DNA of 64,000 nucleotides, from the NCBI GenBank assembly GCA_029258795.1, contig JAPDKB010000007.1, positions 55,070-119,069 on the forward strand, written 5' to 3'. Shown here piece after piece: positions 16,622 to 60,765 of the stretch; the first letter of the stretch is position 1; each line of letters begins with the position of its first letter. Under the pieces are notes generated by a model. That model was given only the letters and a program-made list of their open reading frames with translations, was not told the DNA's origin and made no database searches. The position numbers and the translations under genes are program-made. This DNA comes from an archaeon. Lineage in GTDB: Archaea > EX4484-52 > WAPT01.

Positions 16622-17360
16622 GGAAAGTAAAAGTAATAATAAAGGAGCTGTAAGACCTGACGGAAGGAAGGTGGATGAACTCAGGCCTGTTAAGATGGAA
16701 GTGGGAGTGATAGAGAGGGCTAACGGCTCTGCTTATGTTGAGTTTGGCAAGACAAAGGTTGTGGCAGCGGTTTACGGGCCGGAACCCATGCACCCCAGAC
16801 ATCTTGCTGATCCAGAAAAAGCGGTGCTCATCTGCCGTTACAACATGCTTCCGTTCTCGGTGGAGGATAGAAAGAAGCCCGGTCCCGACAGGAGAAGTAT
16901 AGAGATAAGCAAGGTGATCAAGGATGCTCTGTCAACCATAGTTGCGCTCGAGGAATTTCCCAAATGCATGATAAGCGTTGACATGGTTGTGTTGCAGGCG
17001 GACGCCGGTACAAGAGTGGCTGCACTTACCGCAGCATCTCTTGCCTTGGCCGATGCGGGCATACCCATGAGAGAGATGATGAGTGCCGTGGCTTGTGGAA
17101 GAGCCAACGGGAAGATAGTGGTGGACCTCACAAAAGAAGAGGAGGATGCGGAGGATGCGGTTGATGTACCCGTAGCGATGTCCTCTTTAACTAAAAAAAT
17201 AGCGCTTCTCCAGATGGATGGTGATATGACGCTGGAAGAGTTTGAAGAGATTCTAAACAAGGCGGAAGAGGCATGTTCAAAAATATACGATATGCAAAGA
17301 GAAGCTTTGCTGAATAAATATGAGAAAGAAGGTAAAGAGGTGAACATAAATGATGAGTAG
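16602..17360 (+). CDS. rrp41: Exosome complex exonuclease Rrp41 (RNase PH domain)
   Basis: RPDGRKVDELRPVKMEVGV...NGSAYVEFGKTKV and ADAGTRVAALTAASLALADAGIP are RNase PH signatures. Confidence 0.9.
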   Translation: MPKKKSEESKSNNKGAVRPDGRKVDELRPVKMEVGVIERANGSAYVEFGKTKVVAAVYGPEPMHPRHLADPEKAVLICRYNMLPFSVEDRKKPGPDRRSIEISKVIKDALSTIVALEEFPKCMISVDMVVLQADAGTRVAALTAASLALADAGIPMREMMSAVACGRANGKIVVDLTKEEEDAEDAVDVPVAMSSLTKKIALLQMDGDMTLEEFEEILNKAEEACSKIYDMQREALLNKYEKEGKEVNINDE

Positions 17361-44005: not shown

Positions 44006-44737
44006 TTATTGATTTTTTGGCTTTATTAAAATTTCACCGAAGAGAACGGGCTGCTCGCACACGATTTTCTCGTCCCTTATGAGATGGAGAAGAGATGCAA
44101 AATCCCTTATTATCTCTTCCTTCGTCTTGCTTTTGACAAGCTCGGAGAAGAACACCACACCACTCGGATACAAAAGCTGGAGAATCCTTTCATAGATCTT
44201 TTCGATGTGCTCCGAGAAATCCTTTTGATTCAGCTCGAGGTTGACCATGAAATGGCGCAGCTCCCTTCTTTTCTTCACCTTCATCGCTTTGTTGAGAGCT
44301 TCAACCAGCTCCTCAAGCGTGATGCGTCTTTTGAACTCCCTTCTGATGGGTAAGCGTAACGGAGGAATCACCACTTGCTGCCCTCCACCCAGCTGTGCCT
44401 GCTCTTCCGTACCCTGCTGTTCTTGCTGTGTCTGCTCATCAGCTTTTCCTTCAGCTTCAACGCCCATCAGAGCTTCGCATTTCATTCTGTAGATGATGCT
44501 TGCGGCAAGGATTATCCTTGCCGGGATGCGAAGATTTTCATCCCTCATTTTCTGCAGGATGGTCGTGAATCTATCGCTGAGCTTAACTATGTCTATATCC
44601 CAGGGGTCCATATCCTGCACTAGCATTATAAGTACCTGCTCCCAGTCATCGTAGAGTATGGCTCTTATTAACTCTTCCTCGTAGTCCTTTTCAGAGGTAA
44701 AGCTCACTCTTTCATTTTCTGCAAGCACCTCAGGCAT
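44006..44737 (-). CDS. scpA: Segregation and condensation protein A (kleisin)
   Basis: 243 aa with DPWDIDIVKLSDRF and a C-terminal wHTH-like FASLLHLIRDEKI. It lies adjacent to scpB. Confidence 0.85.
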   Translation of the reverse strand: MPEVLAENERVSFTSEKDYEEELIRAILYDDWEQVLIMLVQDMDPWDIDIVKLSDRFTTILQKMRDENLRIPARIILAASIIYRMKCEALMGVEAEGKADEQTQQEQQGTEEQAQLGGGQQVVIPPLRLPIRREFKRRITLEELVEALNKAMKVKKRRELRHFMVNLELNQKDFSEHIEKIYERILQLLYPSGVVFFSELVKSKTKEEIIRDFASLLHLIRDEKIVCEQPVLFGEILIKPKNQ

Positions 44738-44750
44738 GTTGATTACCCTT

Positions 44751-44954
44751 CTACACCCACCAGACCACTCGCTTTCTCATGCCGATCTTCTGGGCTTCTG
44801 TCCTCCTTTTAACTTTGCCCTCAGCTTTAAGTCTGTATAGGTGCATGTTTGCTGTGCTCCAGCTTATGCCGAGCTCTTTTGCTATCTCGTAGGTTGAAAG
44901 AGGTCCCTTTTTGGAAAGCAACTTCACCAGCTCTTCATCCACAGACCTAGGCAT
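44751..44954 (-). CDS. Small winged-helix DNA-binding protein (67 aa)
   Basis: LVKLLSKKGPLSTYEIAKELGISWSTANMHLYRLKAEGKVKR. This is the first gene of the AT-rich accessory island. Confidence 0.6.
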   Translation of the reverse strand: MPRSVDEELVKLLSKKGPLSTYEIAKELGISWSTANMHLYRLKAEGKVKRRTEAQKIGMRKRVVWWV

Positions 44955-44979
44955 GTTTTATCCCCCTTACTGGTCATCT

Positions 44980-44999
44980 CCGCCTGAAGAATCAGGCGG
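44980..44999. promoter_or_regulatory. Perfect 8-bp-arm palindrome in the 5' leader of the 67-aa wHTH gene (candidate operator or RNA hairpin)
   Basis: CCGCCTGA-AGAA-TCAGGCGG lies about 25 nt upstream of the ATG at 44954 on the minus strand. Confidence 0.35.
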
Positions 45000-45115
45000 G
45001 TAAGTTTAGGTAGTGCTCAGCTATTTATATACTTTTATATGGTGAGTTTTTTATATTGGCGCGTCTAAAAAGATGGTGTTATATTGAGATATTTTGAAGA
45101 GGTTCCTGTGAGGGA

Positions 45116-46399
45116 TCATAGGTAGTATGCAGGCACTCTATATATTGTACAGCCGTTCCTTTTTTCCTTTCCGAACTCGTTGAGGGTGATGACCAGAGCC
45201 CTCTCTGGTCTGTACTCGTTCAGAAAGCTGTAAAATGACCTTCCCAATCTACCAGAGGTGAGCTTTACTTCCACCGGTACTATGGTGTTTTCGTCCCTTA
45301 TCAGCACGAAATCCACTTCAGCTTTACCTGTTGTGCGCCAATAACAAAGCTTGTACTCCTCAAACCCTGTGAATAGCTCCCTGAAAACGAAGTTTTCCAG
45401 TAGGGCTCCAGCATCACTCCTCGTCTCGAACTCGGAGAAGTTGTTTATTATTGCATTTCTTATCCCCATATCCAGAAAATATATTTTCGGAGTTTTTCTC
45501 AGCTCTGTTACAAGGTTTCTATGAAACGGTCTTAAAGTTTGCACGATATACGTGTGCTTGAGTATGCTGAGGTATTCCTCAGCTTTGTAGAAGCTGATGT
45601 TGAGCTGTGATGCGAGAGAAGATGTGGACATCAGAGATGCTGTTTTGAATGCCAGCAGCTTCAAAAAATCCTCGAACCTTTCCACCTCCTTTATCCCGAA
45701 GTGCACCACAACGTCTTTTTCGAGATATAGAGTGTAGATGTTTTTGAGTACGAGCTGCTTTTCCTCCGTGCCCTCTGTCTTTATCACTTCGGGATAGCCG
45801 CCGAAGATCATGTAATCTTTCAGGTGAGTCAGCAATTCCTTCTGGAAAATTGGCGGAGCGGGCTCGTCCCTTCCCTTAAGGAAGTTTTTTACTGAAGCGT
45901 GCTTCTCTCTGAAGACTCTGGCAAGACCATCATCCCTGGCTATCAGAAACTCCTCGAAATCGAAAGAGTAGAGCTCGAAAAGAAAGAGCCTCCCTACCAA
46001 GTACGGAAGCACATTTGTTCTTAATTCCAAGGATGAAGAGCCGGAGAAGATCACTTTTACATCTTCCGCAAAGTGATCGTAGATCAGTTTGAGCTTCTCT
46101 CCCGCATTTTTGACACGCTGAATCTCGTCCAGAAAGAGGAACAGCCTTTTTCCCTCTTTTTTGAATCTTCTCACAAAGTTTAAAGGGTCATCCTCAAGAG
46201 CGCGTCTCATATCTGGAAGATCAAGATTTATGAACGCTTTTTCTTCATTCTGTATTTTTTGGAAGAGGAGTTGAAGGAGGGTTGTTTTTCCCACCTGTCT
46301 TGCACCCCTCACACCCAGCATCTCCTTCCTGTCCAGCAGCTTCAATAACCTGTCCTCAAGCTTCCTCTTGTAGATTTTATTTGCACCAGCTCCATCCAT
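45116..46399 (-). CDS. AAA+ ATPase of the DUF4143 family
   Basis: Walker A GARQVGKTTLL, Walker B LFLFLDEIQ, and a C-terminal restriction-endonuclease-like region (EVDFVL...VPVEVK). Confidence 0.85.
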   Translation of the reverse strand: MDGAGANKIYKRKLEDRLLKLLDRKEMLGVRGARQVGKTTLLQLLFQKIQNEEKAFINLDLPDMRRALEDDPLNFVRRFKKEGKRLFLFLDEIQRVKNAGEKLKLIYDHFAEDVKVIFSGSSSLELRTNVLPYLVGRLFLFELYSFDFEEFLIARDDGLARVFREKHASVKNFLKGRDEPAPPIFQKELLTHLKDYMIFGGYPEVIKTEGTEEKQLVLKNIYTLYLEKDVVVHFGIKEVERFEDFLKLLAFKTASLMSTSSLASQLNISFYKAEEYLSILKHTYIVQTLRPFHRNLVTELRKTPKIYFLDMGIRNAIINNFSEFETRSDAGALLENFVFRELFTGFEEYKLCYWRTTGKAEVDFVLIRDENTIVPVEVKLTSGRLGRSFYSFLNEYRPERALVITLNEFGKEKRNGCTIYRVPAYYL

Positions 46400-46808: not shown

Positions 46809-48506
46809 ATGTCATCAAAGGCCTTTGAGCCGTGGATCCGGATTAGATATCAGATTCTGCTTAAAGAGTTCGGAGAGCGAGAATTCACAAGAAAGGATGC
46901 GGAAATTGCTTTAAGCAAGCATGACAAACCCTTACTAAACATAAACGAGCTCTTCAGCATCTTGGCAAAAGAGGGCTTGTTACAATCTAAAGAAAAAAAC
47001 GGTAAGCACTTCTACAGGCTCACACCACCTACAGAAGAGAAAGTTAAGGCTACGAGGGACCAAATTATAAGAGTTCTGAAAAATGGGGCAGATATCATCA
47101 GGAATAGGGAATACAGAATGCTGCTTGTTCTCTTGTTCTATAAAGCTCTGAGTGATAGGTGGGTCAAGAAGGTGGAGGAATATCTTAAAGAGGTTGATGA
47201 TGTCAAGGCTGCTTATCATCTCGCAAATATCGAATACTATTACCTTTATGATGAGCCAGAAGATAAGCTTTATACATGGGATGAGGTTGTAAAGGATAAG
47301 GTTAATCTGGTAAACAACTTCATAGTGGCCTTGAATAGGATTGCTGAACTAAATGATAAGCTGGCCGATATTAAAATTCTTGTCGATAAACTTGGATTTG
47401 CAGGATTTGTAGCCAATGAGGAGAACTATCTATTGTTTAAGGATCTTGTAGAGAGTTTTAACAGGTTGGACTTGAGGGAAGCTAACTATGATATCATTGG
47501 AGATGCTTATGAATGGATTCTGTCCTATTTTGCTCCAACCAAAGCAAAGGCAGGAGAGATCTATACACCTAGAGAAGTTATCCGCCTGATGGTTGAGATT
47601 CTTGATATTCCTCCCAATTCAGATGTTCTTGATCCTGCATGTGGTTCATGTGCCATGCTCATAGAAGCGTACAAATACGCTAGTGAGAAATACCAAGACG
47701 GTAAAACTTTGAGGCTTGAAGGTCAGGAATGGGATGATCTAACTTGTGTGCTCGGAAAACTTAACCTTGTTATGCATGGAATCACAGAAAACTACACGGT
47801 GCATCTTGGGGATAGCTTGATAAACCAGAAGTTTTCTCAAGCAGATTATGTTCTGGCCAATCCGCCTTGGAATTTAGATTATGACATCAACAAATCCATG
47901 AATGAGAAACTGAAGGAGATTTACAAGTATGGCATCACTCCAAAACAAAGTGCTGACTGGCTTTGGGTTCAGCTCATGATTCACTTTGCAAGAAAAAAGG
48001 TGGCTGTTGTTCTGGATAACGGTGCTTTGTTTAGGGGAGGAAAAGAGAGGATAATAAGGGAAGGTATAGTTAAAGATGATCTGGTGGAGTGTGTTATCTT
48101 GCTTCCTGAGAAATTGTTCTACAATACAGGAGCACCAGGAATTATAATGATTCTCAACAAAAACAAACCAGAAGAAAGGAAGGGAAAGATTCTGTTTATA
48201 AATGCTTCTCAGGAGTTTGAAAAACACCCGGAAGTCAGGAAATTGAACATCCTAAGCAGGAAAAACATCAACAAAATCGTGAAAGCTTACCGCGAGTTTA
48301 AGGACATTGAAGGATTCTGCAGAGTCGTGAGCTTGGAAGAAATCAAAGAGAATGATTACAACTTGAACGTCACGCTTTACGTTTTCCCACAGGAGGAAGT
48401 TGAGGAAATTGACGTTAAAAAGGAGTGGGAGGAACTGAAGAGGGTTGAGGAGGAGATAAAGGAGGTTGAGAAGAGGGTTGAAGAATTTATTAGGGTGGTG
48501 AAGTGA
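46809..48506 (+). CDS. hsdM: Type I restriction-modification system methyltransferase subunit HsdM, with an ~80-aa N-terminal wHTH-like extension
   Basis: HsdM_N-like LLVLLFYKALSDRW. Motif I VLDPACGSCAML. Motif IV ANPPWN. Confidence 0.93.
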   Translation: MSSKAFEPWIRIRYQILLKEFGEREFTRKDAEIALSKHDKPLLNINELFSILAKEGLLQSKEKNGKHFYRLTPPTEEKVKATRDQIIRVLKNGADIIRNREYRMLLVLLFYKALSDRWVKKVEEYLKEVDDVKAAYHLANIEYYYLYDEPEDKLYTWDEVVKDKVNLVNNFIVALNRIAELNDKLADIKILVDKLGFAGFVANEENYLLFKDLVESFNRLDLREANYDIIGDAYEWILSYFAPTKAKAGEIYTPREVIRLMVEILDIPPNSDVLDPACGSCAMLIEAYKYASEKYQDGKTLRLEGQEWDDLTCVLGKLNLVMHGITENYTVHLGDSLINQKFSQADYVLANPPWNLDYDINKSMNEKLKEIYKYGITPKQSADWLWVQLMIHFARKKVAVVLDNGALFRGGKERIIREGIVKDDLVECVILLPEKLFYNTGAPGIIMILNKNKPEERKGKILFINASQEFEKHPEVRKLNILSRKNINKIVKAYREFKDIEGFCRVVSLEEIKENDYNLNVTLYVFPQEEVEEIDVKKEWEELKRVEEEIKEVEKRVEEFIRVVK

Positions 48507-49609
48507 AAGAAAATATCTATCCTATAGGTTTTTGGAATAAGGAAGAGTTAATAGATATAATTAAATCTAATTTGCCAGAGGACATATGTGTGAAAACGAT
48601 TGATTCAAAGTCTTTTCAAGAATTTCTTATATTGTCCGATGATCATGGAAAGATAATTCTTAATTATGATAAGAGTGGACACTTTATTTTAAACTTGACA
48701 CAATGTAAAGAACCTGAAAAAATACAACAATCGCTAGAAAAGGCACTCAATTTAGACTACACTCTTCCAGGAAAATACAGAACTAAAACGTGGAAGTTAA
48801 CTTCTCCTAATTTATCTCGAGAACTTTTGGAGATTTTAATAGATAACTTTCCTAACCAGGTCAAAAAAATAAAACACACCCCAGACATGTATTTTCAGTG
48901 CAAACTTATCGGCAAAAATACACTAACTCATATGAAAAATGGTGATCTCCACTTAAGAGTCGAGCACCGGAATAAAGCAATTGATGAAATTTATGAGATA
49001 ATTGAATCATTTTTAAAAGATAAAATATCACAGAATATGCGAAAATTAAAAGAAATTGATGTAGGCAAAGAAAGCTACGAAGATTTTATCAAAAATCATA
49101 TTTCTATAGACATTGTTCAGTATATTGATAAAGATGTTTACAATTATCTTTCAGGAAGAGACGTTTGGGAAATATCGGATGGATTAAGAATTTTTCATAT
49201 GATAAAAATCGGAAATATCCCATTAAAAAATTATAAATGCTTAGTAAGAAATTTTTCTATTGCATTTGAAGGGTTTTTAATTAAATACTTTCTTGAAATA
49301 GGTTTCATTGATAAGGAAGAGTATGAGCAAGATCCAACCACGGCTAGGATATTTAGCTGTATTAATCGATTGAGAAAGGAGTATGGAGAAATAATTAATC
49401 GACGTGAAAAAGGTCTGACAGGAACACTTTCTGGATTATGGGTAGAGTGTAGGAATAATTATTTGCATTCTGATATGTACAGTTTTTCACACCTATACAC
49501 AATAAAGGAAGCAGAGTCAAAAATTATTGAGATCTTACTCACAATGAAAAGATTGCTCAATGTGTTGCCTCTAATAAGAAACAATAATACAAATGGAGAT
49601 GAGTCATGA
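48503..49609 (+). CDS. Restriction-linked ORF A: putative HEPN-domain RNase with RnlA/LsoA-like architecture
   Basis: ATGA overlap with hsdM. Two segments (GKIILNYDKSGHFILNL; NTLTHMKNGDLHLRVEH) resemble the TBP-like/RNase HIII-N fold motif. A C-terminal helical domain carries R-NNYL-H (codons 49451-49468). Length is 368 aa. Confidence 0.55.
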   Translation: MKENIYPIGFWNKEELIDIIKSNLPEDICVKTIDSKSFQEFLILSDDHGKIILNYDKSGHFILNLTQCKEPEKIQQSLEKALNLDYTLPGKYRTKTWKLTSPNLSRELLEILIDNFPNQVKKIKHTPDMYFQCKLIGKNTLTHMKNGDLHLRVEHRNKAIDEIYEIIESFLKDKISQNMRKLKEIDVGKESYEDFIKNHISIDIVQYIDKDVYNYLSGRDVWEISDGLRIFHMIKIGNIPLKNYKCLVRNFSIAFEGFLIKYFLEIGFIDKEEYEQDPTTARIFSCINRLRKEYGEIINRREKGLTGTLSGLWVECRNNYLHSDMYSFSHLYTIKEAESKIIEILLTMKRLLNVLPLIRNNNTNGDES

Positions 49610-49620
49610 AAATTAACATC

Positions 49621-49684
49621 GGCGGATCCGTACCGGCGCGAATGTGCACCATCCGGTGCACGGCCGAGTACGGACTTACCCGCC
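49621..49684. other. GC-rich 64-nt extended stem-loop in an otherwise AT-rich island
   Basis: GGCGG-A-TCCGTAC-CGGC-GCGAAT-GTGCACC-ATCC-GGTGCAC-G-GCCG-A-GTACGGA-CTTAC-CCGCC, with about 23 paired positions by eye. It overlaps a possible 40-aa ORF (49606..49728) whose ATG overlaps the stop of ORF A. Confidence 0.6.
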
Positions 49685-49827
49685 TAAAAGATAATTATGA
49701 GTCGGATTATATAAAACTTTCGATTTAGAAATTCGCGGAAAAATCGGAAAGAACTGGAAAGATATTGATAAGTGATAAAAGTAGATAGAAAAGATGATTA
49801 ACTTACTGAAATAGTGAGTGTGGTCCT

Positions 49828-51291
49828 ATGACATCTTACAAGGAAATTGAGGGATGGTTTGTGGATCTCATAGAAACATTTAGACGGGAGTATGAGAAAC
49901 TCAGCGATTCAGAAAAATCGCAACTTTTGAACAGTTTTGATTATACTTTTCCCTGTCAAATCGAGGTCTTTTGGATGAATGACCCAATAGAATATCAAGT
50001 TATAGTTGTAACCCACGATGAAGATAGGAGTGATATGGAAATAATAATTCATGGTCCTTTTAAAGCTCATGAGTTTTTAGAAAAAATAGAAAAAATCATG
50101 GAAGAGTCCCGATGGCAAAAAGTTGCATATACGCGTCACCCTCATAAAGAAGTAGTAAAATATTCCGATCTCTTTATCTCAATACTCAGCAATCTATTTA
50201 GGATAATCAAAAATTCTATTTTTTCGAAAGTTAGTAAAGGGTATATCGGAGGAGTAGCTCTAGGAGCTAGAGAATGGTGTTGGTATGTTTCGGGTAATGT
50301 TATAGAACTTGATCCCTACGAGTTAGTAAAGAATTCAATTGACGAAATGAAGTACAGAGTAAAAAATAAAACTTCTCAGGGAGAAGAAACAATCCAATTA
50401 TCTCGTATTTCTGAAAATAGATTGAAAGGTTATGGGACATACTTCTATCCTATGGTCTGGATAGGAAAAATACCTGAACCGACATTTAAAGAAAAGGTCA
50501 CTGGAGAGTACAATTTATCTTCAAGTAAAGTTTTCGACACAAAATTTAATACTTTCAAACTTATCGTAAATTCAGACGGATTTATAGGAATAGTCACTGA
50601 AGACAGAACAGAAGCCATTAGGATTTTAAACCTGATCTTCGGTGTGGCGTTAGTATTAGGCCATACTTGCTTTGCTGTAAGGGAGTCTGAAATAGCTGAA
50701 ATAGAAGTCGATCCTCAATCATTAGAAATCTGCTCAATTTCAATGCCATATTTATCCCTAAAAACTCTATTTATAGATCATTTGAGACCAAAGATTACGT
50801 ATTTCGGGATGAAAGAAATTTCTGAAAGTGACATTAGAGAAATCATAAAAATAGCTGAAAAAATAAATAAAAATCCATACTTGTCAGAACTCTTAATTTT
50901 TCTACTTGAAGGAAGTACCCACTATGTAAATGCAGAATATTCGCAATCCTTCATTATGAATTGGGTCATAATTGAAAGATACATCGATAAATTGTGGAGA
51001 GAATTTTTAGATGAAAAACAAATGTCTAATAGGCGAAAAGATAAACTTACTAATCCTGCTTTATGGAACATAGATTCTATACTCGAAGTGTTAAATTTAA
51101 GTGGGAAACTTGATGATGAGGGTTATGAATTGTTACGTGATCTAAAAAATAAGAGAAATAATTTCGTCCATAGAGGGCGACTTATTGATAAAGAAAGCGC
51201 GAAAGAGTTGCTAAATTTTAGTTATGTGATTGTCAAGAACGAATTATTCGATTTCTTGAATCTTGAAAATAAGCAAGAGGTGAGGGAATGA
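49828..51291 (+). CDS. Restriction-linked ORF B: 487-aa protein with a C-terminal HEPN-like domain
   Basis: C-terminus ...YELLRDLKNKRNNFVHRGRLIDKESA has an L-x-x-L-x-x-RN-x-x-x-H signature (R 51154-56, H 51169-71). I do not recognise the N-terminal ~330 aa. Confidence 0.55.
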   Translation: MTSYKEIEGWFVDLIETFRREYEKLSDSEKSQLLNSFDYTFPCQIEVFWMNDPIEYQVIVVTHDEDRSDMEIIIHGPFKAHEFLEKIEKIMEESRWQKVAYTRHPHKEVVKYSDLFISILSNLFRIIKNSIFSKVSKGYIGGVALGAREWCWYVSGNVIELDPYELVKNSIDEMKYRVKNKTSQGEETIQLSRISENRLKGYGTYFYPMVWIGKIPEPTFKEKVTGEYNLSSSKVFDTKFNTFKLIVNSDGFIGIVTEDRTEAIRILNLIFGVALVLGHTCFAVRESEIAEIEVDPQSLEICSISMPYLSLKTLFIDHLRPKITYFGMKEISESDIREIIKIAEKINKNPYLSELLIFLLEGSTHYVNAEYSQSFIMNWVIIERYIDKLWREFLDEKQMSNRRKDKLTNPALWNIDSILEVLNLSGKLDDEGYELLRDLKNKRNNFVHRGRLIDKESAKELLNFSYVIVKNELFDFLNLENKQEVRE

Positions 51292-51608
51292 ACGAAAAAA
51301 TGGTCATAAGTATACTCGTAACCGGACTAATAGGAGGTCTCTTTTTTGGAATTAGCTTAAAAACTGGGGAAAGTGTCAATCCAGAATCGATAATGATAAA
51401 AATGGGTAAATTGATTTGTGAAGAAATTGATAATCCCGAACTTTCTTCCACATGTAAGTTCAATATCCAAATCGTATCACTTATAGCAGGGATTTCAGGA
51501 ATTATTGAAACCTTTTCGGTTGCTAAAAAAGCCGGTGATATTAGAATTGGTCTAATGTTATTGTTTGTAGGATTTATGTTTGGATTACTGATTTCATTGG
51601 TGAGTTAA
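51288..51608 (+). CDS. Small 3-TM membrane protein coupled to ORF B
   Basis: 106 aa. ATGA overlap with the ORF B stop, and its own stop abuts the hsdS ATG. Hydrophobic helices: ISILVTGLIGGLFFGI, IQIVSLIAGISGII, IGLMLLFVGFMFGLLISLV. Confidence 0.6.
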   Translation: MNEKMVISILVTGLIGGLFFGISLKTGESVNPESIMIKMGKLICEEIDNPELSSTCKFNIQIVSLIAGISGIIETFSVAKKAGDIRIGLMLLFVGFMFGLLISLVS

Positions 51609-52862
51609 ATGGAAAAGACCTTTGTCGGACAAATTCCGAAAGATTGGGAAATTGTAAGAGCTGGTCACATCTTTGATATTTACGGCGGCACAACACCATC
51701 AACTAATAATAAAGAATATTGGAACGGTGACATATTATGGGTAACTCCTACAGATGTAACTAAATTAAACAATACTCCCTATTTAGATGATACCGAAAAG
51801 AAGATAACAGAAAAAGCTGTAAGAGAGTGTTCATTAAAAATTTTACAACCTGGAACGCTTTTATTGACTTCTAGAGCTACAATCGGATTTACTGCAATAA
51901 ACAAAAAGCCAGTTACAATCAACCAAGGGATAACCGCACTTATTCCAAAGAAAAAAGATATGGTCGATGTTTTATTTTATAATTATTATTTTAGATTGCT
52001 AAGAACCTATCTTCAACAACTCGGAGCAGGAAGCACATTTAAAGAAATTTCTAGATCGATAATTAAGAAGCTCAAAATCCCACTCCCACCCCTCCCCGAA
52101 CAAAAAAAGATAGCCGAAATTTTAAGTACAGTAGATAAAGCAATCCAGAAAGTCGATGAAGCGATAGCGAAGACTGAAAGGCTGAAGAAGGGTTTGATGC
52201 AGGAGCTTTTGACGAAAGGCATAGGGCACAAGGAGTTTAAGAATACGGAGATTGGCAGGATTCCGAAGGAGTGGAAAATAGTAAAGTTGGAGGATGTAGC
52301 CAAAGTGTTTGATTGCAAACATCGGACGCCCACGTACTATTCTGAAGGCTTTCCGGTTTTACTTCCGAGAAATGTTCAAGAGGGACGCATATCTTTAGAG
52401 GATGCTCCGAGAACAAGTTACGAAGAATATCTCGATCTCACAGAAAAATACAAACCTGCAAGAGGCGATATTATTTATACGAGAAACGCTAAAGTAGGAG
52501 TTGCAGGAATGGTGATGACTAATGAAGAATTTGCACTAGGACAAGATTTAGTAGGCATAAGACCTCTCAAAAAAGTCGAGTCCAATTATTTGTTATATGT
52601 GTTGAATTCTAGTATAATCAGGAGATATTTGATAAAAGCCCAAACAGGTTCTACCTTTAAAAGGATAAATCTAAGTTTAATTAGAAAATTAAAAATTCCA
52701 CTCCCATCACTCGAAGAACAACACAAGATCGCCGAAATTCTCTCAACAGTTGATAGAAAGCTCGAACTCGAAAGGAAAAGAAAGGAGAAGCTTGAAAGGA
52801 TTAAGAAGGGTTTGATGAATGATTTGTTGACGGGGAGGAAGAGGGTGAGAGTAGAATGTTAG
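51609..52862 (+). CDS. hsdS: Type I R-M specificity subunit HsdS (two target-recognition domains)
   Basis: Duplicated conserved spacer regions: LKIPLPPLPEQKKIAEILSTVDKAI...LKKGLMQELLTKG and LKIPLPSLEEQHKIAEILSTVDRKL...IKKGLMNDLLTGR. Confidence 0.92.
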   Translation: MEKTFVGQIPKDWEIVRAGHIFDIYGGTTPSTNNKEYWNGDILWVTPTDVTKLNNTPYLDDTEKKITEKAVRECSLKILQPGTLLLTSRATIGFTAINKKPVTINQGITALIPKKKDMVDVLFYNYYFRLLRTYLQQLGAGSTFKEISRSIIKKLKIPLPPLPEQKKIAEILSTVDKAIQKVDEAIAKTERLKKGLMQELLTKGIGHKEFKNTEIGRIPKEWKIVKLEDVAKVFDCKHRTPTYYSEGFPVLLPRNVQEGRISLEDAPRTSYEEYLDLTEKYKPARGDIIYTRNAKVGVAGMVMTNEEFALGQDLVGIRPLKKVESNYLLYVLNSSIIRRYLIKAQTGSTFKRINLSLIRKLKIPLPSLEEQHKIAEILSTVDRKLELERKRKEKLERIKKGLMNDLLTGRKRVRVEC

Positions 52863-53824
52863 CAGATAGTTTAATTGTTAAGGGAAAAGTTTTCGTTAAT
52901 CTACCCTTCAGAGAGTATAGAAAATTAAAAGATGCTATAATAGAATTTATGAAAGCTGAAGGCTATGATTTTATTTCGCCTTTTTCTCTTTTTCATGAAT
53001 TCTTATCTTTAACATTCACATTACGGTTCCCCAATGAAGTTCCAATTTCCTTACGAATCAAAAAGTTTCTTAACATTATCGACCATACCAAGTTTCGCGA
53101 AAAGGTGTATTTTTACTATCTCTTACGTGTAAGAAACGACGTACCTTTTGAATTGACTATTCTCCTCTATCCTGGAAAAATGAAAAGGAAAGATGGTATC
53201 ATACTTGAAATAACAGCCAAACCCACCATTTATTTCAAACTTACACAACTCCACACAAAAACAAAATTAATTAGTGAAGAGGACTATAGTTTCATAATAT
53301 TTGAAAATAAAGAATTTATAAAGAAAATAGCCAGATCTATTGGTGGGTACATAGTAGAAGAGCCAAAACCGTTGTTAGAATATGTAAAAAGTGAAGTCTC
53401 TGAAAAATTAAGAAAATTTGAATTTGATAGGTTAGCTAAAATATTAGAAGAGAGCAAAGCAAAAATAGAAACTGGTAAAATCAAAGAAGGTATGGACGAT
53501 TTGCGAGGGTTCATTGAAAACTTTTTCTTTGAGCTTGTTTCTAGAACTGGAGAAAAACCAAAATCGAGAGATCAACCTGAGAAAAATCTAGAAATTTTAG
53601 AAAAAGTAGGATACATAAGTGGAGAAATAAAAGGATTAATTTATTCTTCACTTATCAATGGAGTATATAGAAAAATCTTATCTGAAAAACATCATAAAAG
53701 AGAATCCTCTGATCTATTCACAGCAAGATTATGTGTTAAGATAGTAGAAAACGTCGTTGATATTCTATTAGAGTTGGTTTATCATTATAAAATCAAGATA
53801 CGAAATAATGAGGGTGTCCCCTAA
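52856..53824 (+). CDS. Restriction-linked ORF D: 322-aa protein with a C-terminal helical (possibly HEPN-like) domain
   Basis: Overlaps the hsdS stop by 7 nt and the hsdR ATG by 1 nt. C-terminus DDLRGFIENFFFELV...VYRKILSEKHHKRESSDLFTARL has R-x6-H about 43 aa from the end, a position similar to that in ORFs A and B. The motif match is weak. Confidence 0.5.
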   Translation: MLADSLIVKGKVFVNLPFREYRKLKDAIIEFMKAEGYDFISPFSLFHEFLSLTFTLRFPNEVPISLRIKKFLNIIDHTKFREKVYFYYLLRVRNDVPFELTILLYPGKMKRKDGIILEITAKPTIYFKLTQLHTKTKLISEEDYSFIIFENKEFIKKIARSIGGYIVEEPKPLLEYVKSEVSEKLRKFEFDRLAKILEESKAKIETGKIKEGMDDLRGFIENFFFELVSRTGEKPKSRDQPEKNLEILEKVGYISGEIKGLIYSSLINGVYRKILSEKHHKRESSDLFTARLCVKIVENVVDILLELVYHYKIKIRNNEGVP

Positions 53825-56800
53825 TGTCCCTTGAAAAAGCTTATCTTGATGAGTTTTGTAAAAAGCTGGAAGAGATTGGGTGGAAAGAGTTAAAGCCTCA
53901 AAGCTTGGATAATCATTTAATCAAAGAAATTTTTGAGAAGAAGGTGGAGGAGCTGAATAAGGACGTTCTTGATGCTTATGCGGAGCAGAAAGATAAGATC
54001 ATGAATCAGGTTTATTTGACTATCCAGAATGCTGATGAAGTGAAGATGCTTGATATTTTGAGGTTTGGTGCTGACATCGTGATCAAAAAATGGAATTCTT
54101 TGATTCCTTTGAATATAAAGCTGATTGATTATGAAAATGTCCGAAGAAATAAGTTCAATTACATAAGAGAGCAGGAAATAAAGCATGGGAATAATGTTGA
54201 CAGGCCTGACATTCTGCTTTTTGTTAACGGAATTCCTCTTGTTTTGATAGAGGGTAAAAGTCCGATCATGCAGAGTTTCGGCGAGCCGTATTATGAAGGA
54301 CTAAAGCAAATAATGAGGTATCAAAAGGAAATAAGATCCCTCTTCAAATTCGTTCAGTTTGGTGTAGTTGCAGCAGATAGAAATCCTTACATCCCCACGT
54401 TCCCGAGAGAAGAAATAAAATCTCCTGCCGGCTACGGATTCTGGAAAGTAAATAGAAAGGAGAGCATCTTTGATCTGTTAAAACCTGACAGATTGCTTGA
54501 TGTTATAAGACACTTCATATTTTTCACGAGAGACAAGAAGGGAGAGAGAACAAAGATCATAGCAAGATACATGCAGTATTTTGCCACAAAACGAGCAATG
54601 GAAAGGATCAGCAAATATTTGGAAAACAAGGATAACAAAAATCAGGGTTTGATATGGCATTGGCAGGGATCGGGTAAAACATACACAATGTTCTTCATTG
54701 CTTACCAGTTCCTTCTCAGGTATAACAAAAGGAATCCACTTGTGTTTTTTGTTATTGACAGAATAGAGCTGGAGAAACAGCTGGAGGATGTGTTTAAGTC
54801 AATAGAACACAAAAGAGTTGGAGATGTTAAAAGAATAGAAAAGATAGAAGAACTGAAAGAAGTCATAAAAAATGCAGATAGAGAATGGGGACTTAAAATA
54901 ACCACGATACAAAAATTCCAGCCTAGGGAACTAGACATAAAAGAAAAGGTTGAGAAGAAAGAAGTCCTCTTTCTGATAGATGAAGCTCATAGAAGTCAAT
55001 ATGGAGATTTAGCAGCCACAATGAGAAAAATATTTAGCAAAGCCATCTTCATTGGATTTACCGGCACGCCAGTATTCGTAAACGAAAGAAACACATTCAA
55101 GCACTTTGCTTACCCTCCTGACGAAATATATCTTGATGTTTATTTCATTCAGCAGTCTCAGGAAGATGGCTTTACTTTACCTATAATTTTCAGAGTGATC
55201 GAGGAGAAAAAAGAGAAAATAGGGGGAATAGACATACTGCTAAGCGAGGATGATATAAGGGCGATATTAGAAGCTTACAAAGAGGATGAAATGGAAGTTG
55301 ACAGCATCTTAGAAGGTGAGATAGCAAGGAAGTTAAAGAAGCAACTAAGGAGCAAAATTAGGAAGACAAGAATAATTCTAGAGAACGAAAAAAGAATTGA
55401 GAAGGTGGTGGAATACATAAAGGAGAATATAAGGGAAGACACGGAAAACTTTACTTTCAAGGCAATGATAGTAGCGGCAAATAGGACAGCTTGTGTAAGG
55501 TACAAGAAAATAATGGATAAGCACTTCCCAGAAGAATTTAGTGAAGTTGTGATGTCATACCAACAAAATGAAAAAGAAGAAATCCACACGTTTAAGGAGA
55601 AATTCCTTAAGAGATACAACACAAGGGACTGGAATGAAGCTAACGAAAAGGTAAGAGAAAACTTCCTTAAGAAGGAGTATCCAAAAGTTCTTATCGTTAC
55701 TGACATGCTGCTAACTGGATTTGATGCTCCCATTCTCAAAGTGATGTATTTGGATAAGCCGATATTTTATCACAGATTATTACAAGCAACAGCAAGGGTT
55801 AATAGGCCTTATCCTGAACTGAATAAAAAACACGGGTTAATTGTGGATAGTGTCGGATTGCTGGCCCACATACAAAGAACCCTGAATATCTACCAATATC
55901 TAGCGGAAGAGAATTCAGAAAAAATAAGGGAGGATTTGAAAAATGCATTTAAAGATAGTGAGAAAGAGCTGGAAATTTTAAAACAAAAAATAGATTACCT
56001 GAAAACCAAACTAAAGGATTATGGTATCGATCTGGAGATGATAGCTAAATGTCTAAAGAACAACGATCTAAGCTTTTATGAGGATCTTAAGGAAAAAATA
56101 AGCGGTCCTAATGGTATGGCGATGTATTTCACAGAAAAAGAAGATGTTAGAAAAATGATGAGATTCGTCAAGGAAGCCTTGGAAATATACAAATCGCTTG
56201 GTGCTTATCCTAAAAAGCTGGATTATAAGTGGGAAAAAGATGCTCTTTTTGTAATCTATAATATGTTTTTGAAAACAGTCAACAAAGGAAGGAAAAAGGT
56301 TGTTGGCGAGGTGTGGGATAAATTAATTGAACAAATTCACAGGTCAACTGTAGTAGAAGAGCTCATAGATAAGGTGGAGAAGGAAGTAAAAGCTGTAAAG
56401 CCTATAAAACCCCAAATCAAAGAGGCTGCTGTAACGTTCTATGAGATTAGGAACGTTGTTATGGATAGACTTCACAACCCTCTCTACAGAGAGATTTACG
56501 AGAGGTTAGAAAGATTACGAAAAATGTGGCTTGAAAGAAACATCGGCGTTGAGGAGTTCATAAAGGAGCTTGAAAAAGAGCGGGAGGAGGTAGAGAAACT
56601 TGAAAAGTTAGAACAAAAACCAGGTTGGGAAAAAATCTACAAAATGACCTCCGAATATTTACAGAAAAATCTTGGTGAAAGATTGGAAATTCCAGAATTG
56701 AAAAATAAGTTGAAGGATATCTTCGAGAGAAATAGATTTTTAGAGGTGGATGAAAAGGAAATCAGACTGATTGTTGCGAAAGCTTTATTGAGACATAAGA

Positions 56801-56877
56801 TGGATCCTAAAAAACGTTATGAATTAGAAACAAAGATCGTAGAAATGATAATAGACGAAGTTAGGAGATCGCTATGA
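53824..56877 (+). CDS. hsdR: Type I restriction enzyme endonuclease/helicase subunit HsdR
   Basis: N-terminal nuclease region (RPDILLFVNGIPLVLIEGK), Walker A WQGSGKTYTM, DEAH box LIDEAHRSQ, motif VI QATARVNR. Confidence 0.93.
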   Translation: MSLEKAYLDEFCKKLEEIGWKELKPQSLDNHLIKEIFEKKVEELNKDVLDAYAEQKDKIMNQVYLTIQNADEVKMLDILRFGADIVIKKWNSLIPLNIKLIDYENVRRNKFNYIREQEIKHGNNVDRPDILLFVNGIPLVLIEGKSPIMQSFGEPYYEGLKQIMRYQKEIRSLFKFVQFGVVAADRNPYIPTFPREEIKSPAGYGFWKVNRKESIFDLLKPDRLLDVIRHFIFFTRDKKGERTKIIARYMQYFATKRAMERISKYLENKDNKNQGLIWHWQGSGKTYTMFFIAYQFLLRYNKRNPLVFFVIDRIELEKQLEDVFKSIEHKRVGDVKRIEKIEELKEVIKNADREWGLKITTIQKFQPRELDIKEKVEKKEVLFLIDEAHRSQYGDLAATMRKIFSKAIFIGFTGTPVFVNERNTFKHFAYPPDEIYLDVYFIQQSQEDGFTLPIIFRVIEEKKEKIGGIDILLSEDDIRAILEAYKEDEMEVDSILEGEIARKLKKQLRSKIRKTRIILENEKRIEKVVEYIKENIREDTENFTFKAMIVAANRTACVRYKKIMDKHFPEEFSEVVMSYQQNEKEEIHTFKEKFLKRYNTRDWNEANEKVRENFLKKEYPKVLIVTDMLLTGFDAPILKVMYLDKPIFYHRLLQATARVNRPYPELNKKHGLIVDSVGLLAHIQRTLNIYQYLAEENSEKIREDLKNAFKDSEKELEILKQKIDYLKTKLKDYGIDLEMIAKCLKNNDLSFYEDLKEKISGPNGMAMYFTEKEDVRKMMRFVKEALEIYKSLGAYPKKLDYKWEKDALFVIYNMFLKTVNKGRKKVVGEVWDKLIEQIHRSTVVEELIDKVEKEVKAVKPIKPQIKEAAVTFYEIRNVVMDRLHNPLYREIYERLERLRKMWLERNIGVEEFIKELEKEREEVEKLEKLEQKPGWEKIYKMTSEYLQKNLGERLEIPELKNKLKDIFERNRFLEVDEKEIRLIVAKALLRHKMDPKKRYELETKIVEMIIDEVRRSL

Positions 56878-57158
56878 GGAACCTGAAAGATTTAGTCGAG
56901 GAAATTAAAAAGGAACTTGGAATTGAAGAAAAAGTAAAGATCGAACTTAAGAATTATAAGCGGTTGATAGCCTCTACGTCCCTTGAGAAAAACATTATAA
57001 GAATAAACAGAAAGATATTGGACAAAGATTTCGTGGAGAAAAAGCTAGGATATGAAAATCATGAAGAATTCGTGATGAAAGTGCTGAAACACGAACTAAT
57101 GCACATAAAACTAAAAACACGATGGCACGTTCCGCAATATTTTGAAAAATTGATGTAA
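56874..57158 (+). CDS. Mini DUF45/YgjP-like zinc metallopeptidase (94 aa)
   Basis: ATGA overlap with hsdR. ...IASTSLEKNIIRINRKIL...VLKHELMHIKLKTRWH..YF matches the C-terminal core of DUF45 (HExxH), a family commonly linked to hsdR. It is much shorter than the usual ~230 aa. Confidence 0.6.
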   Translation: MRNLKDLVEEIKKELGIEEKVKIELKNYKRLIASTSLEKNIIRINRKILDKDFVEKKLGYENHEEFVMKVLKHELMHIKLKTRWHVPQYFEKLM

Positions 57159-57383: not shown

Positions 57384-57917
57384 ATGTTAGAAAAATGTGA
57401 CGAGTTTAAATTGATGGAGTTGTTCTTCAGGAAGCCACTGTACAGATATCACTTTCGTGAGTTATGCAGGTTGCTGGGCTGGAGCCCCTCCAAGCTCAGG
57501 AGCAAAATAAACATCTTGAAAAGGATGGGTCTCGTGAAAGAAATGAAAGAAAAAAACATGAAAATATTCATTGCCAACACGGAAAATGAAAACTACAGGA
57601 GATACAAAATCGTTTACAATCTTCTAAATGCTTACAAAATTGCGGATTATCTCGAAAAAAACCTGGAATACTTCGATGTCATTATCCTTTTTGGCTCAGC
57701 GGCTGATGGAGAGGATACTGAAACCAGCGATTTCGATATATGCATTATGGGCAGTAAAGAAACACCTCTAAATCTCGAAACCCTCGAAAAAAAGCTCGGA
57801 AGAAAGATCTCGTTGCTTTTCATTGAAAACATAAATATGTTGCAGAAAAGAAACCCCGAACTTTTAAACAATATTCTGAACGGCTTTGTTATTAAGGGTT
57901 ATCTGAAGGTGTTCTGA
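57384..57917 (+). CDS. Minimal nucleotidyltransferase (MNT) with an N-terminal wHTH
   Basis: ILFGSAADGEDTETSDFDICI matches the GSxxxGxxxxxSDxD NTase motif. wHTH: LCRLLGWSPSKLRSKINILKRMGLV. Confidence 0.8.
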   Translation: MLEKCDEFKLMELFFRKPLYRYHFRELCRLLGWSPSKLRSKINILKRMGLVKEMKEKNMKIFIANTENENYRRYKIVYNLLNAYKIADYLEKNLEYFDVIILFGSAADGEDTETSDFDICIMGSKETPLNLETLEKKLGRKISLLFIENINMLQKRNPELLNNILNGFVIKGYLKVF

Positions 57918-58186
57918 TGCAATGGGATGAGTGTATGAAAAAGAATTTGGTAAAAATGAAAAGAAAAGATCCAGAACTGGCGAGATCATTGCTAAAAATC
58001 GCAATAGAAAGGGTTAAATTCTTTTCATCCAGAGATGTGTCTGTGTTCATGCTGGAAGGTATCTATGAAGCCATACTCGAAGTTTGTCATGCATTTCTGG
58101 CTCTGGAAAAATATATTTCCAAAGAGCTGGAAATTTTCGAAATTCTGAAGAATGAGCTTGAAAAGCGCCTGAAAATTCAATCCTAA
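57917..58186 (+). CDS. Short HEPN-like partner of the MNT, apparently lacking the Rx4-6H motif (possibly truncated)
   Basis: 1-nt overlap with the MNT stop. 89 aa, helical (ARSLLKIAIERVKFF...YEAILEVCHAFLALE). It ends where the catalytic helix would be expected. The smc stop follows 18 nt later. Confidence 0.5.
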   Translation: MQWDECMKKNLVKMKRKDPELARSLLKIAIERVKFFSSRDVSVFMLEGIYEAILEVCHAFLALEKYISKELEIFEILKNELEKRLKIQS

Positions 58187-58203: not shown

Positions 58204-60765
58204 TCACCCTGCCTCCACCCCAGCCTTGCTTCTTGCTGTAATCTTCCTGTCCAGCACGAGCTTGCCGTTCTCGTCAAACTTCACGCCAAAGACTCTCGAG
58301 ATTCCGCCTTCCATCACCACGCCGTATATGCGAGATGCCTTTTTAACCGTTATGTCGTTGTGAGAAATAACTATGAACTGCGAACTCTTGGAATACATGT
58401 TGATCAGATCGCCGAGCTTTTCAGAATTCACAGGATCCAAAGCTGCATCTATCTCATCCAGAGCATAGAACGGATACGGCTTGTACTGCTGCACAGCGAA
58501 CAGAAAAGCTATGGCAACCATCGTTTTTTCTCCGCCGGACAAAGCGTCAATGCTCGTGATCTTCTTGTTTTTCGGCCTCACGTTTATCAGCAAACCGCTT
58601 TCTATGTCATCTTCCCTCTCAAGCTTCAGCTCCACACTTCCACCGATCAGCTCATCAAAAACCTCGTTGAACTTTTCATTCAGACCTCTCAGCGTGTCCA
58701 TAAAAACGCGCTTCCTCTTCTCCTCGATCTCCTCAATCATCCCGAGTATCCTGGCTTTCTCCTCCCTCAGCTTCTTAACCTTTTCAGCAAACTCCTCATA
58801 GTCTTTTCTGAACTCCTCGTAATCCTCTATAGCTTTAAGGTTGACAGGAGAGAGAGCACGTATCCTCATCTCTATGCTCCTTATCTCAGCCTGCAACTGC
58901 TGCGGGTCCTTCTGCTCCAGCCCCTCCCTGTCCTTATACTTCTCAAATTCAATCATGATGTTCTCCAGCTCTCCCTCCAGCCTCGCCTTCCTTATCTTCA
59001 GCTGGTTAACCTCCGCTTCCAGCCGCAACCTCTGCTCCACCTTGAACCTTCTTTCTTCCTTCAGCTTGGCAAGTTTCTCCATCAACTCCTTCTTCTTCTC
59101 TTCCAGCTTTTTGACCTCCTGATTCTCCTCCTTCTCGCTCCTTCTCTTCTCCTCAAGCAGAGAACTCAAGTCCTTTATCTCCTGCTCCAGCTCCTCCATC
59201 TCCTTATCTATTTCAGCAAGCCTTCTCTCATACTCCTTGATCTTGGCCATTTCAACTGCCTGAAGCTTCTTCTTAGCTTCCTTTATGTGCCCGCCAATTA
59301 TCGCTCCAGACGGTTCGAAAAGCTCGCCCTCAAGCGTAACAACCCTGACCCCTCTTGTCCTTCTCGCAGCTTCAATATCTTCAGCTACAAGCGTATCTCT
59401 GAACACGTACCTGAAGGCCTTCTCGTATTTCTTGTCGAATTCCACCAGATTGATTGCAAAATCCACTATACCCGGCATCTTTGCAGCTTGCTCTGCCTTG
59501 CCGGAAATCGGATGCTCTTCCAGCCTGTCAAGAGGTAAGAACCTCAACCTTCCAAGCTTTTCTCTCTTCAGATAATTTATGGCTTGAATGGCTACATCTT
59601 CGCTTTCAACAACCACATCATCGAGATGATTTCCTGCTGCAACCTCTATAGCTGTGCGGAACTTCTCGTCAACCTTCATGAGCTGTGCTATAGTGCCAAT
59701 GACACCATCCATGCCAAGAGCAAGCAGCTGGCTCAATGCTCTGTTTCCGGCATCGATAGCTGAGCTTACCCTTTTGAGATGAGCAATCATCTCTTCAACA
59801 TTCTTCCTCTCTCGCTTAAGTGCTTCAAGCTTCGCATGCCTCTTGTTTATCTTCATCACAAGTTCCTCTATCTCCCTCCTAAGCTCCGCATTCACACTCT
59901 TCTCTATTATCTCCTGGTTCAGCTTTTCAATTTCCTTCTCAATCCTCTCTATCTCCTCATCACTCTCTCCTGCCTTGGAGCTTATGGCTTCAAGCTCCTT
60001 CTCCTTGACCTCAAGGTTTCTTTTCACACTCTCCAGCATGGACTCAACCGCTTTAAGGCGGGAATAAGCAAGGTTTGCCTTCAGCATGTCAAGCCTTTCC
60101 TCCAGCTTTCTGTATTCAATGGCAGCATCCCTCTCCTTCTTCAGCTTCTCCACAATCTTCGTCTTCTCTTCCAGAATTATCTCCGCTTCCGCAAGCTTTC
60201 TCTCGGCTTTTTCCAGCTCCTTCAATGCCTTCTCCTTCTTCTCGTTGTACTCCCTTATACCGGCAATGTCATCGATTATCTCCCTCCTCTCCTTCGGCCT
60301 CATCTCAAGCAATCTTGTAATATCCCCCTGCTGGATTATGTTGAATGACTCCGCATCTATACCTATGCTTCTCAGCACCTCAACCAGCTTTCTCCTTGTC
60401 ACCGTCTTGCCGTTTATTTTGAAAACGGATTTCCCGCTCCTGTCAACCTTTCTGGAGATCACAAGAACATCATCCTCAACATCCTCCACAACTTTTCCGG
60501 AATTATCCAGATGAAGCTCAACAACCGCATAATCTGCTGGCTTCCTGCCGTTACCTCCGTTGAAAATGACCTGAGCAAGCCTCTCGGCTCTTATGTTGGA
60601 AGACCTTGAACCGAGAACGAACACCAACCCATCGATTATGTTGGACTTGCCCGAACCGTTTGGACCTATGATCGCGTTGAACTCCTTCTCCAGCGGTATC
60701 TCTACCCTGCCAGCGAAGGACTTGAAGTTCTCGAAAACTATGCGCTTTATGTGGGTGGTGCTCAT
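58204..60765 (-). CDS. smc: SMC chromosome segregation ATPase with unusually short coiled-coil arms (853 aa)
   Basis: Walker A GPNGSGKSN. Hinge from about aa 350 (GVIGTIAQLMKVDEKFRTAIEVAAGNHL...RFLPLD). Signature LSGGEKTMVAIAFLFA. Walker B FYALDEIDAALD. Confidence 0.9.
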   Translation of the reverse strand: MSTTHIKRIVFENFKSFAGRVEIPLEKEFNAIIGPNGSGKSNIIDGLVFVLGSRSSNIRAERLAQVIFNGGNGRKPADYAVVELHLDNSGKVVEDVEDDVLVISRKVDRSGKSVFKINGKTVTRRKLVEVLRSIGIDAESFNIIQQGDITRLLEMRPKERREIIDDIAGIREYNEKKEKALKELEKAERKLAEAEIILEEKTKIVEKLKKERDAAIEYRKLEERLDMLKANLAYSRLKAVESMLESVKRNLEVKEKELEAISSKAGESDEEIERIEKEIEKLNQEIIEKSVNAELRREIEELVMKINKRHAKLEALKRERKNVEEMIAHLKRVSSAIDAGNRALSQLLALGMDGVIGTIAQLMKVDEKFRTAIEVAAGNHLDDVVVESEDVAIQAINYLKREKLGRLRFLPLDRLEEHPISGKAEQAAKMPGIVDFAINLVEFDKKYEKAFRYVFRDTLVAEDIEAARRTRGVRVVTLEGELFEPSGAIIGGHIKEAKKKLQAVEMAKIKEYERRLAEIDKEMEELEQEIKDLSSLLEEKRRSEKEENQEVKKLEEKKKELMEKLAKLKEERRFKVEQRLRLEAEVNQLKIRKARLEGELENIMIEFEKYKDREGLEQKDPQQLQAEIRSIEMRIRALSPVNLKAIEDYEEFRKDYEEFAEKVKKLREEKARILGMIEEIEEKRKRVFMDTLRGLNEKFNEVFDELIGGSVELKLEREDDIESGLLINVRPKNKKITSIDALSGGEKTMVAIAFLFAVQQYKPYPFYALDEIDAALDPVNSEKLGDLINMYSKSSQFIVISHNDITVKKASRIYGVVMEGGISRVFGVKFDENGKLVLDRKITARSKAGVEAG

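Follow-up and report, generated by a model that had tools for sequence, protein, structure and literature searches.

An archaeal type I restriction-modification operon with uncatalogued candidate defense genes nested between its subunit genes

The stretch of DNA analyzed here (64,000 nucleotides of contig JAPDKB010000007.1 from assembly GCA_029258795.1, hereafter the window) belongs to an archaeon of the GTDB lineage EX4484-52; WAPT01 and carries a type I restriction-modification (R-M) operon in which hsdM, hsdS and hsdR are separated by four further open reading frames (ORFs), A to D. The locus is a dense archaeal case of the known nesting of defense genes in R-M operons and no new fixed composite machine. 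In the reading that we favor, to which we give a probability of about 0.65, the operon lies on an acquired island, and its two inter-subunit gaps would be slots in which accessory defense cassettes land independently. The slot between hsdM and hsdS would thus hold A, a predicted RnlA-like HEPN endoribonuclease, a GC-rich element, B, a putative HEPN protein of the DUF4145 type, and C, which elsewhere accompanies A. The slot between hsdS and hsdR would hold D, a recurrent occupant of that place.

The evidence for interchangeable cargo comes from related operons. The nearest backbone is that of two loci (L010 and L011) with 70% identity in HsdM, 72% in HsdR, 58% in D and 69% in the 94-aa HExxH protein encoded after hsdR. 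Their gene order is hsdM, pAgo, hsdS, D (split into ORFs of 88 and 220 aa), hsdR and the HExxH gene, so that a single Argonaute stands in place of A, the hairpin, B and C. In a second pair, L005 and L006, the order is hsdM, SLFN-AlbA2, OLD-ATPase, SduA_C, A, EVE, a 137-aa protein, GNAT, hsdS, a 292-aa membrane protein, a 107-aa protein, NYN, hsdR and a YgjP-like gene cut by the contig end. The locus L102 reads hsdM, SLFN, A, a C-like gene, three small ORFs, hsdS, D, hsdR and YgjP. Finally, the operon of a Candidatus Mnemosynella (L001) comprises hsdM, B, hsdS, a 291-aa membrane protein, hsdR and YgjP, with B alone in the hsdM–hsdS slot. The proteins of 291 and 292 aa that L001 and L005 have in their hsdS–hsdR slots were considered as relatives of D and rejected, being multi-transmembrane proteins with no similarity to D; the 291-aa protein is an unrelated membrane protein.

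Two of these arrangements deserve description in their own right. The pAgo of L010 (2911-5328) and L011 (2203-4620) is an 805-aa protein with a Piwi domain, whose gene follows hsdM with an overlap of 4 nt and precedes hsdS; its nesting in a type I R-M operon is possibly of interest in itself. In L005 (3956-20815, identical in L006), ten genes are embedded in the operon, with mostly overlapping junctions. They include a SLFN-AlbA2/HATPase gene, an OLD-like ATPase-TOPRIM gene, a NYN nuclease gene and the gene of the multi-transmembrane 292-aa protein.

Among the contexts sampled, A, B and D occur all three together nowhere besides the window. One homologue of A (L007) lies outside any R-M operon, D is also found outside R-M operons, and B, across 73 distinct loci, is a standalone gene with just 3 exceptions. 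An earlier note on this DNA, made from the letters alone, had seen in the operon a fixed, co-evolved composite; the substitution of pAgo for A, B and C on the nearest backbone, together with these free-standing copies, speaks against it.

In the window, the operon runs on the plus strand, and all its ORFs were recovered in the ORF map with the order and tight junctions that the earlier note had described. The core of the R-M system is unambiguous in identity and, judged from its sequence, intact in appearance. The hsdM gene (46809-48506) encodes a 565-aa methyltransferase subunit with matches to N6_Mtase (7.1e-102) and HsdM_N in Pfam and to MTase_I (5.7e-82) in PADLOC; its translation contains the motifs DPACGS and NPPW. 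The 417-aa specificity subunit encoded by hsdS (51609-52862) matches Methylase_S (Pfam, 6.1e-65) and Specificity_I (PADLOC, 6.8e-101). It has two target-recognition domains: the Methylase_S match falls in two stretches, and blastp shows an internal duplication. The 1017-aa restriction/translocase subunit encoded by hsdR (53824-56877) matches TIGR00348 of NCBIfam at 5.3e-180, with a score of 600 bits where the cut-off is 284.55, and displays HSDR_N, SWI2_SNF2/ResIII and T1R_D3-like domains in Pfam as well as GSGKT and DEAH motifs.

The genes in between are fitted closely to this core. ORF A (48503-49609, 368 aa) overlaps hsdM by 4 nt and is itself overlapped by 4 nt by an ORF of 40 codons, from which a gap of 99 nt leads to ORF B (49828-51291, 487 aa). 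ORF C (51288-51608, 106 aa) overlaps B by 4 nt and directly abuts hsdS (0 nt). ORF D (52856-53824, 322 aa) overlaps hsdS by 7 nt and hsdR by 1 nt, and the 94-aa ORF follows with a 4-nt overlap with hsdR. From these junctions the earlier note had deduced a fixed stoichiometry of the products. Start/stop overlaps are an ordinary trait of operons, and the related operons show them with different cargo; since overlaps of 4 nt accompany cargo of all kinds (L005/L006 and L010/L011), they give no sign of a dedicated complex.

Searches of Pfam, PADLOC and NCBIfam gave no significant match for ORFs A to D, nor did sequence searches of the PDB with the single proteins and with family profiles. For A, the absence of a Pfam match extends to its eight homologues (39-56% identity), RnlA models included. 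An AF2 model of A, computed on the family alignment, has a predicted local distance difference test score (pLDDT) of 87 and a predicted template modeling score (pTM) of 0.71, and in it a helical domain comes after two alpha/beta modules. In Foldseek, the nine highest-ranking PDB matches of this model are all structures of RnlA from E. coli, with E values from 6.5e-7 to 1e-3 and a probability of 1.0. Eight of them are full-length chains, mostly aligned from end to end. The NRD-HEPN fragment of RnlA (7aex) is also among the matches. Further down the list come TATA-binding proteins, which match the N-terminal modules, and then, more weakly, the HEPN domains of sacsin and 4nqf.

RnlA consists of two domains like that of the TATA-binding protein (TBP) and a HEPN domain, and its essential residues are Arg255, Glu258, Arg318 and His323 (PMC8266594). 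In the alignment of the A family (nine sequences), Arg249, Glu256, Arg317, Asn318 and His322 are invariant, and four of these residues (Arg249, Glu256, Arg317 and His322) occupy nearly the same positions as the essential residues of RnlA. Thus A shares with E. coli RnlA and LsoA, the RNase LS toxins of the rnlAB and lsoAB anti-T4 toxin-antitoxin systems, a three-module architecture, nearly the same length and nearly the same placement of probable catalytic residues. It differs from them in having neither sequence-level similarity nor an RnlB-like partner, in being archaeal and in being embedded in R-M operons in three of four contexts. The global TM-score between A and RnlA is only about 0.28, since the orientations of the domains differ. 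Because the fold matches and the invariant residues agree and the sequence link is missing, we describe A as RnlA-like in predicted fold and probable chemistry, yet as no demonstrable member of the RnlA family of Pfam. The earlier assignment of A to the HEPN proteins, based on its motif RNNYLH, is borne out by the RnlA-like fold (best Foldseek E value 6.5e-7) and by the invariance of this motif across the family.

No RnlB-like partner is conserved beside A in its four contexts, and the gene on its 3' side differs in each of them: the hairpin with the 40-aa ORF in the window, and otherwise an EVE protein, a three-transmembrane protein or a 284-aa protein.

ORF B consists of an uncharacterized N-terminal region of about 350 residues, large and specific to the family, and of a predicted C-terminal DUF4145-like HEPN domain. 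In an alignment with 27 full-length homologues, Trp379, Glu383, Arg443 and His448 are invariant and Asn444 nearly so, which defines the motif K-R-N-x-F-x-H. The protein of the window itself has no Pfam match above threshold, and PADLOC gives a faint, non-significant match to CARF_HEPN over residues 367-463. When the 27 members were scanned, DUF4145 (PF13643) was found in seven (best 6.5e-7), HEPN_Swt1 in three and HEPN_RiboL-PSP in three. The HEPN assignment of the roughly 130 C-terminal residues, also made in the earlier note from the Rx4H motif RNNFVH, is therefore well supported at the level of the family, by the invariance of that motif and by the DUF4145 matches of 7 of the 27 members.

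Scans of genome and metagenome collections yielded 73 distinct public loci of B, nearly all archaeal. Genes of the hsd type adjoin B in only 3 of the 73, and in one of the 25 loci that extend at least 3 kb to both sides. No conserved neighbor was found across the B loci. Some standalone copies lie beside pAgo/DpnII, Kiwa/Thoeris-TIR, Cas1 or type IIG R-M genes. Just 3' of a standalone B homologue, on the opposite strand, L004 (12223-17076) and L016, a metagenome-assembled genome of Nitrosopumilus (11886-16739), each encode a 1617-aa protein without Pfam domains, which may represent conserved synteny.

Published cases exist of DUF4145-type HEPN domains that are linked, or fused, to R-M components (PMC3710099, PMC3506569). 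B resembles them in its invariant Rx4H motif, in having relatives that match PF13643 and in its setting within an R-M operon; it differs in falling below the Pfam thresholds, in its own large N-terminal region, and in belonging to a nearly all archaeal family that is usually not linked to R-M.

The picture is different for ORF D, which belongs to an uncharacterized family of proteins of about 315 aa. A word-indexed search returned three homologues, and an exhaustive HMMER search 154 representatives, of which 69 had E values below 1e-30. The earlier note had proposed D as a third HEPN RNase on the strength of the segment RKILSEKH. In the family alignment, the histidine of this segment (His280) is present in 64 of 65 sequences, but its arginine (Arg272) in just 8 of 65, and the position five residues before His280 is mostly a serine. 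Other conserved residues are Arg217, Glu221, Asn244, Arg282 and Glu298. The AF2 model of D, of moderate confidence (pLDDT 75), is of alpha/beta type in its N-terminal half and helical in its C-terminal half. Foldseek searches of the PDB and of viral libraries gave nothing significant and no HEPN structure, the weak matches falling on the alpha/beta half. In view of the poorly conserved arginine and of this fold search, the proposal that D is a HEPN RNase finds no support in the form given.

There are nevertheless faint hints of a degenerate HEPN domain in D. Five of the 65 family members weakly match DUF4145 in Pfam and one matches the HEPN domain of Csm6, and an hhalign comparison of the D domain with the HEPN domain of B gives a probability of 20% and an E value of 0.0012 over 108 columns, with His280 aligned on His448. 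Profile-profile comparisons among A, B and D, full-length and domain-only, revealed no significant relationship, and A and B share just a motif segment of 11 residues.

Five independent operons have D in the place between hsdS and hsdR, closely adjoining both genes: those of the window, L010/L011, L096, L099 and L102. Outside R-M operons it occurs in L097 and L098, where the D-family gene overlaps the start of a gene for a 582-aa DUF4209-domain protein, followed by a 366-aa gene (L097 3632-7430, identical in L098); these may form an alternative three-gene module. The split of the D homologue in L010 (6623-7601) and L011 (5915-6893) reflects a frameshift or pseudogenization, unless two independent assemblies contain the same sequencing error. 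Searches of the viral contigs of IMG/VR turned up no relative of A, B or D, and a viral origin of the three was rejected on this ground.

ORF C is predicted to be a small membrane protein with three transmembrane segments (residues 4-22, 60-78 and 82-100), in agreement with the earlier description. Its single homologue, in L102, has 38% identity (E 4e-25) and the same topology, and is encoded directly 3' of the A homologue, at a distance of 46 nt; C may belong with A. As a partner of B it was rejected, a C-like ORF after B being found nowhere else.

Between A and B, a GC-rich stem-loop (49621-49684, plus strand) begins 12 nt after the stop codon of A. This element of 64 nt has a GC content of 63% in a context of 30%. 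The fold has a free energy of -46 kcal/mol over 131 nt (z = -5.06), and its most stable 70-nt segment, at -39 kcal/mol against a mean of -11, is the most stable of the entire window, so that the hairpin noticed earlier is both real and exceptional. Neither a second copy nor an Rfam match was found, and the related loci showed no counterpart 3' of A homologues or 5' of B homologues; we therefore discarded the hairpin as a repeat or as a known kind of RNA. Among the possibilities are a stable RNA, a processing site and an insulator, or else the scar of an insertion. The 40-codon ORF (49606-49728, plus strand) overlaps the hairpin and is probably no gene. On the 3' side of the hairpin, an AT-rich box (TTATATAAAA) was read from the letters as a TATA-like candidate.

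The last gene of the operon (56874-57158) encodes the 94-aa protein, in which the earlier note saw a miniature DUF45 peptidase. It carries the sequence HELMH, with a sub-threshold SprT-like match in Pfam (E 0.0023) and no match to PF01863. Against a profile of YgjP proteins from five related operons it aligns weakly (9.4 bits), on the HExxH core at positions 124-190. In these five operons, full-length YgjP/DUF45 proteins hold the same position after hsdR, as does the 69% identical orthologue in L010. The protein may correspond to the catalytic core of these metallopeptidases, and its naming as a miniature DUF45 peptidase is weakly supported.

The operon block has a GC content of 0.30-0.40 against about 0.46 in its flanks, and it is placed between scpA on one side and smc on the other. 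The chromosome is archaeal: the scores of archaeal GluRS and of RqcH_arch exceed the respective cut-offs. Because of its low GC content relative to the flanks and this placement, we interpret the block, from its composition and position, as a horizontally acquired island. The genes scpA and smc, normally partners, are separated by it (flanking stretches 44006-46399 and 58204-60765). No integrase or tRNA gene was found within the window. Between scpA and the left edge of the island, a gene for an AAA_14/DUF4143 ATPase lies on the minus strand (45116-46399). Just 3' of the operon (57384-58186) is a gene for an MntA-like minimal nucleotidyltransferase (MNT) fused to a winged helix-turn-helix domain (PADLOC PDC-M05A, 2e-17). 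Its neighbor, with an overlap of 1 nt, is an 89-aa ORF that matches no family and lacks an Rx4H motif; this ORF could be what is left of a HepT/HEPN partner truncated at the right edge of the island, beside the smc stop codon. Farther away, the minus strand of the window bears an ORF of 2056 aa (20947-27117).

From the folds, motifs and modular cargo described above, we infer the following course of events for an operon with accessory cassettes in its slots. The R-M system would act first, by cutting unmethylated invader DNA. A and B would be latent metal-independent RNases, each firing on a trigger of its own, and their firing would shut down translation, leading to abortive infection or dormancy, once a virus has escaped restriction. 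Although co-transcribed with the hsd genes, A and B would be modular add-ons and not stoichiometric subunits, and D may be an accessory of the R-M system. Layered defense of this kind, which the earlier note had also proposed and which is the standard inference for such loci, is plausible.

Several observations weigh against independent cassettes as the full account. At the loci examined, no antitoxin or other regulator for A or B was identified. The standalone contexts of B are mixed, with housekeeping neighbors among them. A and D co-occur in two operons, those of the window and of L102, and A and C co-occur in the same two. Above all, D occupies the hsdS–hsdR slot in five of the seven informative contexts sampled, far above chance, and does so in R-M lineages that have diverged, the HsdR proteins of L096, L099 and L102 being only 31-33% identical to that of the window. 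This placement is non-random across diverged lineages and points to a possible functional integration with the R-M machinery, for D at least.

The same distribution is the starting point of a reading in which the D family is no interchangeable cargo but the dedicated fourth component of one type I R-M lineage. Its degenerate HEPN-like domain, which has kept the histidine and lost the arginine, would be translationally coupled between hsdS and hsdR and would regulate the restriction complex or sense its state, for instance by modulating assembly or translocation, or by acting towards anti-restriction proteins as a decoy or a guard. We consider this unlikely. Somewhat less probable is a guard mechanism of the type of PrrC in EcoprrI, the model of the earlier note, with the Hsd complex binding and masking A, B and/or D until an anti-restriction factor disables the R-M system and frees them as RNases. 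Such masking has already been proposed for R-M-linked HEPN genes (PMC3710099), and it would suit the embedding of these genes in a translationally coupled hsd operon, the recurrence of D in its slot in five operons and the failure to find a separate antitoxin for A or B in the contexts viewed. However, B is mostly standalone and A and D also occur apart from R-M, so that their control cannot depend on Hsd proteins; the nearest backbone (L010/L011) does without A, B and C; none of A, B and D has the ABC-ATPase regulatory domain of PrrC by Pfam, PADLOC and NCBIfam; and D lacks the catalytic arginine.

A could alternatively be the toxin of a pair in which the neutralizer is encoded just 3' of it: C, as in L102, with B inserted later in the window; the hairpin, if it works as an RNA antitoxin; or the peptide of 40 aa. 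The precedent is RnlA itself, the toxin of the rnlAB system, which is also directed against phages and is held inactive by RnlB (PMC3710099, PMC8266594), and the C homologue close behind A in L102 and the unique, exceptionally stable hairpin after the A stop codon are both suitably placed. Yet C does not follow A in L005/L006 or L007, no counterpart of the hairpin was found after any other A homologue, a three-transmembrane protein would be an unusual antitoxin, and the 40-aa ORF has an open frame as its sole argument. We judge a pair of this kind improbable. As little credence goes to the idea that the HEPN genes add nothing to virus defense and are either addiction or selfish modules that stabilize the mobile island or passengers that decay while riding on it. 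The horizontal acquisition of the island, the adjacent MNT gene with its seemingly truncated partner, the split D of L010/L011 and the housekeeping neighborhoods of some B copies would all be compatible with it. Against it, catalytic-type residues of A and B are invariant even among homologues with as little as 27-40% identity, which indicates purifying selection on activity, and the slots of related operons hold recognized defense genes (pAgo, OLD-ATPase and SduA_C).

Independent accessory cassettes in the slots of an R-M operon also agree with what has been published on such loci. At least 16 HEPN clades, mainly bacterial, have been linked to R-M operons, for which an analogy to PrrC was proposed, and HEPN domains of the RNase LS family were reported in fusion with TBP-like domains (Anantharaman et al. 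2013, PMC3710099). A "repeated toxin displacement" in R-M loci was described by Makarova et al. (2012, PMC3506569). More recently, "guilt-by-embedding" was systematized, type I R-M operons included, in a survey that found PrrC almost exclusively embedded in type I R-M systems and that cites rloF of Campylobacter jejuni, a gene for a DUF262 protein located between hsdR and hsdS (Payne et al. 2024, bioRxiv 10.1101/2024.01.29.577857). TgvAB, inside the VPI-2 type I R-M system of Vibrio cholerae, is an embedded system validated by experiment (PMC11411939). The earlier suggestion that the architecture was undescribed is accordingly overtaken by the literature, HEPN genes in R-M operons having been published in 2012-13 (PMC3710099, PMC3506569) and embedding having been surveyed in 2024 (bioRxiv 10.1101/2024.01.29.577857).

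The operon of the window shares with the embedded defense genes of Payne et al. (2024) the same-strand nesting among hsdM, hsdS and hsdR, a cargo that varies with the host operon and the occurrence of the same genes in non-embedded form. It differs from the catalogued systems in its archaeal host, in both slots being filled at once and in its four cargo genes. With PrrC in EcoprrI it has in common a HEPN RNase gene, here a predicted one, among hsdM, hsdS and hsdR, which would form a second line behind restriction; A and B differ from PrrC in being facultatively embedded and, like D, in having no ABC-ATPase regulatory domain. PADLOC-DB v2, which includes the candidate models of Payne et al. (2024), did not recognize A, C or D and gave faint, non-significant matches only for B.

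A, B and D are thus uncatalogued families of the R-M-embedded kind already described. The locus contributes three candidate defense families from archaea, whose defense repertoires are poorly charted: an RnlA-like putative HEPN family recognizable by fold only (A), a widespread archaeal single-gene HEPN family (B) and a family of the hsdS–hsdR junction (D). Together with relatives that bear pAgo or up to ten embedded genes, it presents archaeal type I R-M operons as hotspots for cargo and thereby extends to archaea a principle described mainly in bacteria.

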